64,000 bases of DNA from Candidatus Poribacteria bacterium (GTDB taxonomy: Bacteria; Poribacteria; WGA-4E; PCPOR2b). Shown here one piece after another: positions 14,986-22,674 of this stretch. The position numbers were made by a program, and so were the translations under genes. How positions within the stretch are numbered: the stretch's first letter is position 1; every line of letters begins with the position of its first letter. Location: contig OZ242351.1 in assembly GCA_965208675.1 (NCBI GenBank), positions 3,656,387 to 3,720,386 of the forward strand, read 5' to 3'. A model generated the notes under the pieces. It worked only from the letters and a program-made list of their open reading frames with translations, had not been told where the DNA came from and made no database searches.

Positions 14986-15386
14986 TCAGTAGCTGTTAGA
15001 TTCATCTGATTTGGGGTCCGACCCAAATCGCAATACGTGATTATCAAGGTCTTCCACTTTCATTTCGTACGCCCAGGGGTAGTTTGTTGGGACCTCTCGA
15101 TTCGTAGCACCGCTCGCTTGGTGTTCTTCATATAACTTCTCGACATCCTCGACACTTATCCAAGTCCAGGTTCCAGCTTGTCCCTGATCGCCGTGGCATA
15201 GCATTATATGACAGTGGCCGCGTGATACAGACCCAAAGCCTGGCGGATCTCCCCAATCCCAATCCTCTTAAAACCGAGCACTTTTACATAATAGTCGATA
15301 CTGGCTGGAAAATTCTTGACATTGAAGATGGGTATGATGCACGCAAACTTGGTTTTTGTCCTTTTCATTGCATCCGCACTCGGCAT
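14986..15386 (-). pseudogene. VOC/glyoxalase-family gene interrupted by a frameshift
   Basis: Two abutting minus-strand ORFs, 15386..15204 and 15204..14986, overlap by 1 nt. Together they make a roughly 130-aa VOC protein: the N-half reads ...FNVKNFPASIDYYVKVLGFKRI and the C-half reads ...SVEDVEKLYEEHQASGA...PWAYEMKVEDLDNHVLRFG. Confidence 0.5.
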
Positions 15387-15705: not shown

Positions 15706-16320
15706 TTGATATTACAATCCGATGAATTTCTCATTGATAAGATTCTTGAACGCGATGCGGAGGCGTTTGAAGTGCTTTGGGCACGATATAGCGCGTCCGT
15801 CCGCCGACACATCATACGCACCGTACAGGACGAAAGTGCAGCCGAGGATTTGGTTCAGGAAGCATTCTTGCGTCTATGGACATCCGCTGAGCAGTGGGAT
15901 GGGCGAGGCAACTTCAAGGGGTGGTTCTTCCGTATCGCCACAAACCTCGCCCTCAATCACCTGCGCGCCCTGCGTCGGCAGAAGCAACAGCCCCTCGAAA
16001 TACCGCTGGACGATTTTGATGATACGGACGACTACTCGTCCGACCCGGATTGGATGATTGACACATCGTTACGCAGTCCCGATGTGATGCTAGAACAAGC
16101 CGAGCAGTCTAATCTGCTCTGGCGGCTGGTTGAAGAACTGCCCGAAGATAAACGAGAAGTGCTTCACCTTGTATATCGGAAAGAGATGAATCTTCGTGAC
16201 GTTGCCGCTGAGATTGGCATCCCGGAAGGCACGGTGAAGTCGCGTTTACACTATTCCATAAAGCGTCTCGCTCAAGCATGGAAGGAGATTACAGGCGAAT
16301 ACGAGGAAGATAGTCAGTGA
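15706..16320 (+). CDS. ECF-type RNA polymerase sigma factor (sigma-70 family, regions 2 and 4)
   Basis: 204 aa. Region 2 reads DAEAFEVLWARYSASVRRHI...AEDLVQEAFLRLW. Region 4 reads REVLHLVYRKEMNLRDVAAEIGIPEGTVKSRLHYSIKRL. TTG start at 15706 and TGA stop at 16318-16320. Confidence 0.85.
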   Translation: MILQSDEFLIDKILERDAEAFEVLWARYSASVRRHIIRTVQDESAAEDLVQEAFLRLWTSAEQWDGRGNFKGWFFRIATNLALNHLRALRRQKQQPLEIPLDDFDDTDDYSSDPDWMIDTSLRSPDVMLEQAEQSNLLWRLVEELPEDKREVLHLVYRKEMNLRDVAAEIGIPEGTVKSRLHYSIKRLAQAWKEITGEYEEDSQ

Positions 16321-16380
16321 ACAAGCGAGGCTATTACTCGCCACGCATTACGCATTCCGTATTACACATCACGATTCACG

Positions 16381-16408
16381 CTACACACTACACACTACAC
16401 ACTACACG
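16381..16408 (+). repeat. Heptanucleotide tandem repeat (CTACACA)x3 plus CTACACG in the sigma/mini-RNAP intergenic spacer
   Basis: Read directly from sequence: ctacaca ctacaca ctacaca ctacacg. Confidence 0.8.
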
Positions 16409-16420
16409 AAATTCCCAATG

Positions 16421-16430
16421 GGAGGAGGAG
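16421..16430 (+). promoter_or_regulatory. Strong Shine-Dalgarno (GGAGGAGGAG) 6 nt before ATG 16437
   Basis: ggaggaggag accgca ATG. This supports 16437, not the GTG at 16317 used by the ORF track, as the real start of the downstream CDS. Confidence 0.6.
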
Positions 16431-16436
16431 ACCGCA

Positions 16437-19400
16437 ATGTCACACAACATCACCGCATTATGGCACAAAAAATCTTTTGACCAACTGATGAACAATCGGC
16501 TGCCAGACCTACTCGCCGAGCGATTGCCGATAGCTGGCTACCATTTTGAACCTACCAGCACCTACACCGGTTGTATCAAAATCTCCCTCACGTCAACTGA
16601 TGGCGACGTTGAAGTCGAATACACCGATATCCCGCAACCGGACAAGGAAGGGATGTTCAAAATTGACGGAGAAAACTATGTTGTCGTTCCAACGGCTTCG
16701 ACTGATAACCTGAAAAAAGCGAAAATCAGATGTATTGGAGAGCAACTATATAGTTATATCAAAATGCGCTTGAAAGGTGCCACCTTAGACCTGTCATGGG
16801 AAACAGCCCCTGTACGATCATGGCTCCCGCTTGATAAATGGATACAGGAATTCTTTCGTGACACATTTTACTCGCAGAAACTTCAGGAGACCAACTGGCT
16901 CGACAAGTATAGGCATCTTCGACGGTTATACGTTCTGAACCGCGAGCAGGTATTCACGCCCTCCCACTTCGGGCGGGCATGCCCTTTCGAGACGCCAGAG
17001 GGGCCAAACATAGGTCGAATCCTTACGATTGCTAGGGGCGCCGAGATTCGCGGCGGAAAACTGGTCGTCGTTGATGAAAACCCCGAAGCAAACCTCGGCT
17101 TAGCATCGGCAATGATCCCATTTCTTGAACACAACGATCCTGCCCAGACAATGATGGGGGCTAACATGTTGTGTCAGTGGATGGCGCCTTCGTCTCCGGA
17201 GACAGCTCCACTACGCCAAGCCAAAGAGATACCGAGGTTGGCTGCTGCTCCGGAGCCCGCACTTGTCCAAACTGGTTTAGAACCGGATGTGCCCGACTTT
17301 TGGTGCGGTCGCAACCTATTGACCGCTTTCATTTCTTGGGGCGGCGATACCTTCGAAGACGGCATCGTGATAAGCCGGTCGTGCGCAGCGCGTCTAAAAT
17401 TTCCTTATGCAGTTGAACCCGGCGATAAGATTGGCAACCGTCATGGAACGAAAGGCGTCGTTTCGCGCATCCTGCCTGACGATGAGATGCCGCACCTTGC
17501 CGACGGTACACCGGTGGAACTTGTATTCAGTTTCGGTGGCTTGCACGCGCTAATGAACCTCGGTCAATTACGAGAGGCGGTGATGGGGCGTATTGCACGA
17601 CTGGAAAATAAGCCAGCTATCGTGCCGCCATTCCGCGCTCCCTGTGCGGATGAATTGCGCGAACGCCTTAAGAACGCAGGACTTCCGGAAGATGGAATGG
17701 AACGCCTTACATTTGGGAGGAACGGTAATAAGGTGGGGCGGCATAGCACAGTCGGTTGGGTGTATTGGGGACGTCTGGCTCATATTGCGTTAGATAAAAT
17801 AAAAGCCTCCGACTCAACCGATATTGAAGACCATAGGTACTTCCAAACACTTGGTGAACTTGAATACGATAGACTACGCAACGCCTCAGTACTTGAAACA
17901 TTGAGGGAACATTTTAACACCCGCGCCATGAATCGGACTGATGCGCATACGTTAGCGGAGCGCGTCGCAATAGGCGAAGTTGAGCAGGCGGGTCCGCCGA
18001 CGCCGATGTTCGCTAACCTCACGAATCGACTCTCGGCAGCAGGAATTTGGGCCGAACTCTACGGCGGCAAGTTGATTTTTAAATTTGGGCGACCGAATGG
18101 AAATACGCTCAAGCTTGCTCAGCCCGTCCCTTATCCGTGGTGCCGCGATCGAATCCTTGATGAAGTCGGGGTCCGTGAAGGCATGCCTGAATATCAGTCG
18201 CTTGCCGATGTCAACGCCAGGGCTGACCGTATGCTTGCGAGTAATGCACCGGAAAGTTTAACCCGCCAAACCATCGTGCAGCTCCAAACCCGCGTCGCGG
18301 ATTATGTCAATGCGCTCCTAAGCCCAACCGTCATGAACTTTAAGTCACGGAGCCTCTTCAGCGGACGCGCTGTCATAGCACCGGGTGCAGAGTTACACGC
18401 TGATCAGGTCGGTATTCCGGAGGAGATGGCGTGGGCACTCTTTGGACATCATGTTACAAATCGGCTCGGTGATGCCGAAGAAGTACGGCGGCGTAGTCAA
18501 GGTGCAACACAAATCCTGGATGAATTGATGGCGGGTTCGTGGGTAATTGTGCTTCGTCCACCGGCGCATACACTCACTAACCTCGTTGCGTTCCATCCGG
18601 TGCGGCACCCCGACCGTGTCATCCGCGTGCATCCATTCGTGTGCGAGTTTATGAACGCCAATTTTGACGGCGATCAAGCAGCAGTCTTTCTCCCAATCAC
18701 TGAAACCGGACAACGCGAAGCCGGTGAACGGCTTTCCATCGCCGGGCATCTGAAACACGACCCAAGTTTATCCAAATTGCTGGCACCGACGCATGACGCG
18801 ATGTGGGGATTGGCACATTTAAGCCTCACCCCGGAAGGGCGCGGCGAAATCGCAGAGATTGTCGGAACCAACATCCCCGCCCCAGACGGTCTGGTTAGAC
18901 AAGATTCGCTGGCAAAGTCACTAGAAGCCATCCTCAAATGCGATGGAATAGACCGCACGATTGAAATAGCCGAGCGTCTAATGCGGCGCGGGCTCGCAAT
19001 TACTAAGGAATCGGGTGCCTCCATGAGCCCATTTATCAGTAGACCCGCTGGCAGCCCATCCGTTCCGGTAGATCCCGATGATGCACCCGCTTGGAACGCT
19101 CACGCAGAGGAACTTATCGAGTGGCTTGCCGCGTGTAACGACTTCGCGGACAACAACTTGGGACCGCACATCCTTGCGGCAAAAAGCCAAGACGCACGCA
19201 GTAGACTTTATCGAATCGCTTGCTGTGTCGGGGCAAGAGGTACGGTTTTGGACCTTCGAGGAAGAGATATCATCGTTCGCAACGGGTATAGCGACGGTTT
19301 AACACCCGGTGAACTTTACCCGCTTTCCGTCACTTCGCGGGAGGAGATTGTGCGGCTCAATTTGGAACGGCAACGGATAGAATTGGAATTGCGCAACGAC

Positions 19401-19556
19401 AGTGAGCCAGCAGGATTCACCGTCCTGGTGCGTGCAATGCGTGCCAAACACCCAGGTGTCGTTTTCGCCCGAGCCGCTGCAACCGGTGAGGTCGATCCGC
19501 TTACTGATGTGGACAGCCGTCTTTTCGTCGGGCTACCTGTATCAACTGAGGAGTGA
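16437..19556 (+). CDS. Single-chain fused beta/beta' (RpoB-core plus RpoC-core) minimal RNA polymerase-like protein
   Basis: 1039 aa. It carries the RpoB blocks in order: [108 protein letters not shown] and [17 protein letters not shown]. These are followed by the RpoC blocks: [56 protein letters not shown] and [22 protein letters not shown]. The flap, lineage insertions and trigger-loop region are missing. The ORF-track version (16317) is extended upstream through a repeat-containing spacer. Confidence 0.8.
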   Translation: [1039 protein letters not shown]

Positions 19557-21513: not shown

Positions 21514-22674
21514 TCAGATTTTGGCGCTGTGGGCACGTAGATACCGCGCCACCTCAACACGGTCTTCGTGTTCTGCCCATGCAAGCGGGGATAGGTGATG
21601 AGCACCGTCTTTATGATTTAGGTTTGCACCTCGCTCTGCGAGAAGCATGGCTACCGCGAGATGGCCCTTGAACGCCGAAAAGTGGAGCGGCATCCACACT
21701 GCACCTAATCCGGGCGGCATCGCATCTACTCCCGCGCCTCGGTCAATCAGCAAGGCGGCAACCTCCGCACGACCATTCAAACTGGCAATACACAATGCTT
21801 CATCAAGAATCTCTTGCGGTTCGTCCGACCGAGACTTCTCTTCAAACCAGCCGATGTCGCCGAGGTTCGGTCGATCAGATGCCGCCTCCGGCTTCAGGGT
21901 TCCATCTTCAGCAAAGTAAGACTTAACCAAGTCAATGCCGCCGCCGCCCGCCGCCATCCAAAAGCTACACGGCGATATACCACGCTCAATCCAAAAATCG
22001 ACAGTATCCCGATTCCCGTGCAACATGGCCGATTTTATCTGCCAAATGGCAGGAGATTCGTCCGAGCGTAACGCGCCGGTTTCGATGAGGAGTTGGACAG
22101 CTTCTAGATTGTTTGCCCAAAACACTTTTTCCATTCGAGCCCCCGCCCCAATAAGGGCGCGCATTATGGGAAGTCGAGTGTCGGTGGAGATGCCTTCGAT
22201 CGAGGCGGCGTATTCTAGAAGTGTGATATAGTCCTCAGATACCTCTGGCACCTTTATCATCGCGTTGACAATGGAGGGGTCATGTGTTAACAGTTCTCTC
22301 AGTGTGTCTGAATCGCCTTTCCGGACGGCTTCAAACGCTGCACTCAAGGTTTCGTCGGTGCGCTCCGTAGGGTCGGCTCCGAGCATGATTGCACGTTCCA
22401 CGAGTTTCGCCCAACTCCTAAAACCCCTTTCACGCGCAATCACGAGTTGCGCCTCTTTTAATGACAGGTCAAACGCGCGGATTTGTTCATCTTTTGCGCC
22501 CGGGAAAAGCGGATGGTATTCCCGAAGGCGATGAACAGCCCAACGCAAACCAGATTGATGCGCCTTCAATAGAGTTCGCGCTAGTCTGTGGTAGTAGGCG
22601 CCGCCATTCCCCCATCCCCACAGCATATGGTCGCGCGGGTCTCGCGTGGAGTGCTCGATCAAGTTCACAGTCAT
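21514..22674 (-). CDS. Ankyrin-repeat protein
   Basis: 386 aa. Several 33-aa ANK-like units in the C-terminal two thirds (...LHFSAFKGHLAVAMLLAERGANLNHKDGAHHLSPLAWAEHEDRVEVARYL...). Confidence 0.7.
   Translation of the reverse strand: MTVNLIEHSTRDPRDHMLWGWGNGGAYYHRLARTLLKAHQSGLRWAVHRLREYHPLFPGAKDEQIRAFDLSLKEAQLVIARERGFRSWAKLVERAIMLGADPTERTDETLSAAFEAVRKGDSDTLRELLTHDPSIVNAMIKVPEVSEDYITLLEYAASIEGISTDTRLPIMRALIGAGARMEKVFWANNLEAVQLLIETGALRSDESPAIWQIKSAMLHGNRDTVDFWIERGISPCSFWMAAGGGGIDLVKSYFAEDGTLKPEAASDRPNLGDIGWFEEKSRSDEPQEILDEALCIASLNGRAEVAALLIDRGAGVDAMPPGLGAVWMPLHFSAFKGHLAVAMLLAERGANLNHKDGAHHLSPLAWAEHEDRVEVARYLRAHSAKI

Follow-up and report, generated by a model that had tools for sequence, protein, structure and literature searches.

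A natural, inherited asparagine has been found at the first of the three Mg-chelating aspartates of the catalytic motif in a single-chain, minimal fusion of RNA polymerase (RNAP) subunits beta and beta', encoded, together with an extracytoplasmic function (ECF) sigma factor, in a stretch of 64,000 nucleotides from a sponge-symbiont Candidatus Poribacteria bacterium (contig OZ242351.1, positions 3,656,387 to 3,720,386; "the window" below). To our knowledge, the NADFDGD Asp triad has been treated as invariant in two-barrel RNA polymerases. The substitution had at least three origins, and is linked to a stepwise loss of arginines at the binding site of the nucleoside triphosphate (NTP) under continued selection. 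The reading that we somewhat favour, from comparison of the sequences, is that the Asn proteins are crippled pseudo-polymerases, kept for a non-catalytic role in binding sigma, nucleic acid or both.

The catalytic motif and the distribution of Asn

The letters of the window from 18654 to 18677, aac gcc aat ttt gac ggc gat caa, are in frame with the open reading frame (ORF) at 16317..19556 and translate to N-A-N-F-D-G-D-Q, just as an initial annotation of the window had read them, including the Asn at 18660-18662. Residues were mapped with hhalign onto the canonical gammaproteobacterial rpoB and rpoC (locus L023), and it is from this profile alignment of the family that Asn742 is taken as the equivalent of Escherichia coli beta' D460. 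The beta'-type barrel expected of a two-barrel RNAP core is present (Pfam Rpb1_2, E = 1.5e-15), with N-F-D-G-D in place of the DxDxD signature.

Two sets of relatives were compared: an alignment of the query with 120 close homologues, and a deep set of 129 representatives covering the motif region. In the former, the query has Asn, as do P0001-P0008 (at 80-94% identity), P0027 and P0032, and Asp stands in the remaining 110 of the 121 sequences; in the latter, DxDxD is kept in 126 of the 129. Asn as a trait of the whole family was rejected on these counts, by which about 91-98% of homologues have kept DFDGD. Three Poribacteria chromosomes, each assembled independently (L001, L002 and L011; 84-89% identical), have the same AAT codon at this position and lie at synonymous divergences (dS) of 0.21-0.46 from the window and of up to 0.48 from one another; the Asp-type loci all have GAC or GAT. 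Because the same AAT recurs in genomes that have diverged at many synonymous sites, the Asn is neither a sequencing error nor specific to one strain: it is an inherited trait of a lineage. The initial annotation had offered a choice between a sequencing error and a truly altered site, and it is the altered site that has held: A, not G, stands at the position of 18660 in the independent assemblies, and the orthologues do not all read DFDGD around a strain-specific lesion, the Asn being shared by eight protein clusters and by at least four Poribacteria genomes distinct at the species level.

Asp was replaced by Asn on no fewer than three independent occasions, all of them within the Poribacteria. 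The first origin, N1, is the window clade (the window, L001, L002, L011 and P0001-P0008), with AAT in its four genomes; the second, N2 (P0027, P0032 and L021), has AAC and falls within a group of Asp-type sequences that share 88-90% identity with it; the third, L006, has AAT and belongs to a third Poribacteria clade, where its relative L008, at 90.5% identity, has GAT. All three events affected the first Asp only, and always turned it into Asn. Within N1, the subclade P0006-P0008 reads DANFDGD, with Asp now at the equivalent of beta' N458; Asp is also common there in Asp-type members, and is not clearly compensatory.

Loss of active-centre arginines

In a 2026 study by electron cryo-microscopy, D460 was found to ligate both Mg-A and Mg-B, and R678 and R1106 of beta to hydrogen-bond the gamma-phosphate of the NTP (PMC13198411). 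The positions equivalent to R678 and R1106 hold Arg or another basic residue in > 97% of the family. In the window protein these two and the equivalent of R687 are all gone, so that only K1073 (here K339) is left of the NTP-contacting set R678, R1106 and K1073. The statement in the initial annotation that the beta-side catalytic residues are all present is thus right for K..RHG.KG and wrong for R678, R687 and R1106, which have become Q237, C246 and L372.

Of 11 Asn-type proteins, 8 lack at least one of the three Arg, as does a single one of the 110 Asp-type proteins (Fisher p = 1.6e-9, with no correction for phylogeny), and L006 also has R372Q. The codon patterns of the losses require at least five independent events. 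P0001 and N2 are of the Asn type with all three Arg still present.

Selection on the Asn lineages

Within N1 the ratio of nonsynonymous to synonymous divergence (dN/dS, or omega) of the fusion gene is 0.18-0.27, against 0.14-0.21 in an Asp-type Poribacteria clade of similar depth; that of the N1 partner sigma is 0.16-0.22, and that of neighbouring housekeeping-type genes 0.08-0.14. The 1039-codon ORF is intact in all members. The fusion gene in the Asn lineages is under purifying selection, and is not decaying. When conserved columns were defined from outgroup sequences only (215 columns), 12-18 deviations were counted in N1, against 4-9 in the Asp-type sister clade with one outlier at 18; about 92-94% of the family-conserved columns are kept in N1. 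Charge has been lost in N1 at 11 of 59 conserved charged columns, three of which are those of the active-centre Arg, compared with 3.8 columns on average and 9 at most in nine-sequence subsamples of the sister clade. The deviation signal of N1 is specific to conserved charged and active-centre residues.

Other active-site variants

Two deep members have fully lost the Asp triad, the motif being EVGFSAQ in P0156 (L022 979-4176) and NAGFGGL in P0190. The K1073 equivalent is lost from them too, but neither is truncated, and each has its start overlapped by an ECF sigma gene; P0156 was found on contigs from nine samples. Because these triad-less proteins are full length and sigma-coupled, it would appear that the cassette of the two genes can persist without catalysis.

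In the third Poribacteria clade, L005, L008, L009, L015 and L016 keep DFDGD and have Ala, Thr or Ser at the K1065 equivalent (residue 331); given this replacement, the active centre of the family seems to be unusually plastic in Poribacteria generally. Among the deep representatives, P0140, P0142, P0166, P0186 and P0269 read NADHDGD or NGDHDGD, His replacing the Phe or Tyr between the first two Asp.

Architecture of the fusion protein

The beta part of the protein covers approximately residues 90-460 and the beta' part 540-1039, and besides Rpb1_2 the Pfam domains Rpb2_3 and Rpb2_6 (E = 2.3e-37) are found. It lies outside RpoB, RpoC and the full-length RpoBC fusions: it scores 166 bits with the NCBIfam model for rpoB (TIGR02013; cut-off 801) and 76 with that for rpoC (TIGR02386; cut-off 963), the core segments alone matching, and 154 and 142 bits with the rpoBC fusion models PRK14844 and PRK09603, whose cut-offs are 4632 and 5372. 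Its closest sequence matches in the PDB are bacterial beta and beta'. The AlphaFold2 model, made from 107 homologues, has a predicted local distance difference test score of 91 and a predicted template-modelling score of 0.89, and a Foldseek search with it against the PDB and BFVD returned generic RNAP large subunits only.

The fork region, beta barrel, beta' clamp-helix hairpin, switch 2, beta' barrel and bridge helix are all retained in the hhalign mapping, including a beta barrel with K-x4-RHG-x-KG and a bridge helix that follows the beta' barrel; the entire beta flap (~230 aa) and the beta' rudder are deleted. Since the flap is absent, canonical docking of sigma4 would be impossible. The clamp helices are the canonical docking site of sigma2. 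The trigger loop (and jaw) is apparently absent as well, because the bridge helix is followed by a tail of only ~50 residues with a weak likeness to beta' region H (E = 0.23).

The gene truly starts at ATG 16437, since a strong ribosome-binding site (RBS), GGGAGGAGGAG, precedes it and most orthologues have 1039 aa. A tandem repeat of CTACACA (~4 copies, 16381-16407) lies inside the 116-nt spacer between the sigma stop and the fusion start, and also yields a spurious in-frame N-terminal extension of 40 codons from GTG 16317. No second copy of the fusion gene was found within the window.

Table 1. Features of the sigma and beta-beta' fusion genes in the window
Feature	Position	Strand	Basis or comment
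ECF-type sigma gene (sigma2 plus sigma4)	15706..16320	+	Pfam and NCBIfam; directly 5' of the fusion gene
Shine-Dalgarno GGGAGGAGGAG	16420..16430	+	6 nt 5' of ATG 16437
Single-chain minimal beta-beta' fusion gene, 1039 aa	16437..19556	+	Pfam, hhalign to rpoB/rpoC, AlphaFold2
CAG codon, Gln237, at beta R678 equivalent	17145..17147	+	Basic in 110/110 Asp-type homologues
TGT codon, Cys246, at beta R687 equivalent (GANMQRQ motif)	17172..17174	+	Arg in 110/110 Asp-type homologues and 93/96 deep representatives
E307 and D308, equivalent to beta E813 and D814; intact	17355..17360	+	hhalign
GDKIGNRHGTKG motif, residues 329-340, equivalent to beta 1063-1074 (K1065, R1069, H1070, K1073 = K331, R335, H336, K339); intact	17421..17456	+	hhalign
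CTA codon, Leu372, at beta R1106 equivalent	17550..17552	+	Arg in 96/99 deep representatives
Helical hairpin, residues 585-628, equivalent to beta' clamp helices (beta' 262-311); rudder after it deleted	18189..18320	+	hhalign; AlphaFold2 helices H584-601 and H606-627
NANFDGDQ motif, equivalent to beta' NADFDGD (E. coli 458-464) plus Q	18654..18677	+	hhalign to canonical rpoC
AAT codon, Asn742, at first Mg-chelating Asp (E. coli beta' D460 equivalent)	18660..18662	+	Profile alignment, codon comparison
D744, G745 and D746 codons; second and third Asp kept (beta' D462, D464)	18666..18674	+	
Bridge-helix equivalent, residues 950-985, equivalent to beta' 770-797	19284..19391	+	hhalign; AlphaFold2 helix H957-988

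The sigma partner, its neighbourhood and the spread of the family

The partner sigma, of ~200 aa, matches Pfam Sigma70_r2 (2.5e-18), Sigma70_r4 and Sigma70_ECF, as well as TIGR02937 with 117 bits (cut-off 42.9). In all 22 loci with readable upstream DNA or gene calls, the fusion gene has an ECF sigma gene directly upstream. It stands there on the same strand in 17 of 17 full-length loci from genome collections, belonging to Poribacteria, Armatimonadota, Chthonomonadales and an uncultured bacterium, and also in five metagenomic places (L019-L022 and that of P0190), in four of which its stop overlaps the fusion start or adjoins it within a few bases. Such an overlap, or a gap of a few bases, is usual outside the Poribacteria. 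The other genes around the pair differ between loci. Because sigma is constant upstream while all other neighbours vary, sigma and the fused beta-beta' form a conserved two-gene cassette.

Between phyla the partner sigmas are 50-60% identical, and a P-x-W-[LM]-[IL]-D motif is kept across them; their conserved residues are intact in N1. In the sigma of the window, the linker between sigma2 and sigma4 (residues ~100-120; DDFDDTDDYSSDPDWMID) is strongly acidic. The corresponding linker of ECF holoenzymes runs into the active-site cleft.

The family comprises roughly 100-150 clusters at 50% identity and has been found in Poribacteria, Armatimonadota, Chloroflexota and others, its members being called "hypothetical protein" where the sources name them. 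It is apparently undescribed: no published description of a sigma-coupled mini-RNAP family was found in full-text literature searches, and the main text of the paper on ECF reclassification is silent on it. The fused protein has no match to any defence model in PADLOC, where the match of the sigma is at chance level, and a Pfam search found no anti-sigma domain in it. Searches of plasmid and phage collections returned canonical RNAP-type genes (for phages, among the matches listed) and no family members.

The genes flanking the cassette in the window have 87-98% protein identity to those of a Candidatus Poribacteria chromosome assembled from a metagenome (L001). One gene in the window, at 21514-22674 on the reverse strand, encodes an ankyrin-repeat protein; such proteins are typical of sponge symbionts. 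At 14986-15386, also on the reverse strand, two adjoining short ORFs resemble a frameshifted small gene, in the window as in L001 and L002. The G+C content is 0.51-0.55 between 16000 and 24000, which covers the fusion gene and its downstream neighbours, and 0.45-0.49 in the flanking DNA.

Interpretation

The members of the Asp-type majority are presumably real polymerases, because every catalytic residue is conserved in them, and most likely work with their dedicated sigma, which would dock on the clamp helices that they retain. Replacement of the D460 equivalent in the Asn lineages would first have neutralised the residue that bridges both metals and thereby crippled NTP-dependent catalysis. 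Selection on the NTP site would then have relaxed, and the lineage of the window lost the equivalents of R678, R1106 and R687 in several independent events; it is the decay of the gamma-phosphate contacts after the appearance of Asn that argues for such a relaxation. Purifying selection nonetheless keeps the protein intact together with its unchanged ECF sigma partner; that it continues to act on sigma, on the ligands of Mg-A and on the remainder of the protein suggests that a non-catalytic job is left. Most plausibly, that job would be the binding of sigma by the clamp-helix hairpin, the provision of a nucleic-acid seat by the Mg-A site and basic residues, or both, and the protein would be not a polymerase but a sink for sigma or a promoter-bound complex that is non-productive. 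The initial annotation had already leaned towards a decoy or regulator, which has gained comparative support from the loss of Arg in the Asn lineages, the retention of sigma and the triad-less members, the role itself being a prediction from sequence. More tentatively, and with less confidence than we place in the loss of catalysis, the family as a whole may possess a second, catalysis-independent function, the Asn lineages being natural intermediates in a repeated shift from enzyme to pseudoenzyme, toward a sigma-binding decoy or a non-transcribing promoter-bound regulator -- an anti-sigma built from RNAP.

Several observations weigh against a crippled enzyme. The second and third Asp, which the initial annotation had correctly given as intact in the window, are invariant in every Asn-type sequence (D744 and D746), as are K331, R335, H336, K339, E307 and D308. 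The codon of D744 differs synonymously (GAC/GAT) inside N1, and mutation has therefore reached it; the tree of the four N1 genomes spans ~0.7 dS, over which neutral retention of the two Asp codons has an estimated P of ~0.02. Since these residues are kept in the Asn types, yet are gone from P0156 and P0190, selection still acts on some function of the pocket that is related to metal or substrate. That only the first Asp was replaced, and only by Asn, hints at a position-specific tolerance rather than random inactivation; Asn is still able to ligate Mg through its carbonyl oxygen. No significant enrichment of polymorphism was seen at the conserved columns (odds ratio 1.1, p = 0.78). A global acceleration of rate in the Asn clade was considered and rejected, identity to the outgroup being 54.3% vs 54.6%. 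Finally, the effect assumed for a single D460-type substitution follows what Sosunov et al. reportedly described in 2005.

The strongest alternative, which we regard as doubtful and yet deserving of serious weight, is that the Asn variant is a working polymerase with a remodelled metal site, in which the side-chain carbonyl of Asn742 serves as ligand, perhaps with a preference for Mn2+ or at a slower rate, the Arg changes reflecting charge compensation or a changed substrate. Such an enzyme would account for the strict retention of D744, D746, K331, K339, E307 and D308 in 12 of 12 Asn-type sequences through a synonymous change at D744, for three independent events that all turned the first Asp into Asn, and for an omega equal to that of the Asp-type clades alongside a conserved sigma partner. 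Asn-type members with all three Arg do exist (P0001 and N2), and in N1 every member but P0001 has lost one or more of the positive charges near the site, as compensation would predict; the same P0001 and N2, however, have the Asn without any loss of Arg, so that compensation is not required. Asp-to-Asn changes at catalytic carboxylates generally cost polymerases orders of magnitude in activity. The residue in question bridges both catalytic metals (PMC13198411), and the mutant of the phage polymerase YonO in which all three Asp were changed to Asn (3D>3N) is dead (PMC5467207). The absence of both gamma-phosphate Arg from the window protein, moreover, is hard to square with efficient use of NTPs.

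It is very improbable that the gene is a functionless, decaying pseudogene in which the Asn is one of many neutral lesions. The window protein has indeed lost near-invariant residues at a number of positions (D742N, R237Q, R246C, L372, Y566 and N675), but every member has an intact ORF, dN/dS stays within 0.18-0.27 over a dS of up to 0.48, as in the Asp clades, ~92-94% of conserved columns are kept, and the RBS and the partner sigma are preserved; an omega of ~0.2 together with intact ORFs led us to reject this explanation. A one-base error of sequencing, assembly or consensus (G to A at 18660) can practically be discounted, for although a single transition separates the codon from GAT and the window was probably assembled from a metagenome, the same codon is found in three independent chromosomes that differ at 18-35% of synonymous sites, and Asn in eight clusters of proteins taken from ENA, NCBI and Logan.

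If the preferred view of the Asn proteins as crippled pseudo-polymerases is right, they would represent the re-use of a polymerase core for a non-catalytic role. The family offers a natural series -- full triad, NxDxD, NxDxD with NTP-binding Arg lost, and no triad -- in which the Asn lineages are a natural experiment on the contribution of the first Asp and of the gamma-phosphate Arg. Should the Asp-type members prove active, they would be the smallest sigma-dependent RNAPs of the cellular type, of use in work on the evolution of RNAP and in orthogonal transcription systems.

Comparison with known polymerases and sigma systems

With canonical RpoB and RpoC the fusion shares a homologous catalytic core, including the fork/Rpb2_3 region, the barrels, ED, GDK..RHG.KG, the clamp helices, switch 2 and the bridge helix. 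It differs in having 1039 aa in one chain against a total of ~2750 aa in two subunits, in lacking the flap and rudder and apparently the trigger loop/jaw, and in having Asn for the first catalytic Asp. The rpoB-rpoC fusions of Helicobacter and Wolbachia (PRK09603 and PRK14844) likewise carry beta and beta' in one polypeptide and in the same order; they are, however, complete subunits joined end to end (~2850-2900 aa) and the only RNAP of the cell, whereas the fusion in the window is an accessory gene with a dedicated sigma.

YonO, from the Bacillus prophage SPbeta, is also a single-chain relative of the multisubunit RNAPs, of ~100 kDa and lacking a trigger loop. It cannot do without its Asp triad: the 3D>3N mutant is inactive, though it binds scaffolds (PMC5467207). 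Unlike the window family, which is easily recognised (Rpb2_6, E ~1e-37), YonO has almost no sequence similarity to beta and beta', and it is prophage-borne, with no known sigma partner. No phage genes were found around the fusion gene in the window; in a tblastn search of 50,697 phage records 43 matched, those among the matches listed being all of rpoB/rpoC type with no YonO or SPbeta entry, and the PHROG matches of the fusion protein are to beta- and beta'-type families only.

The arrangement of the cassette recalls that of ECF sigma/anti-sigma pairs, in which the sigma gene is followed at once by that of a conserved partner, often with overlap of stop and start; here, however, the partner is a homologue of the RNAP core with a clamp-helix hairpin and without an anti-sigma domain. 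In architecture, the fusion most resembles Orf6 of the Kluyveromyces lactis killer plasmid pGKL2, a 982 aa fusion of Rpb2- and Rpb1-like parts (PMC2919709). The two have been compared by description only: that protein differs in being encoded by a eukaryotic plasmid, in deriving from Rpb2 and Rpb1, and in having no sigma partner, but it too is a miniaturised fusion of the large-subunit core, in the same order and of similar size.

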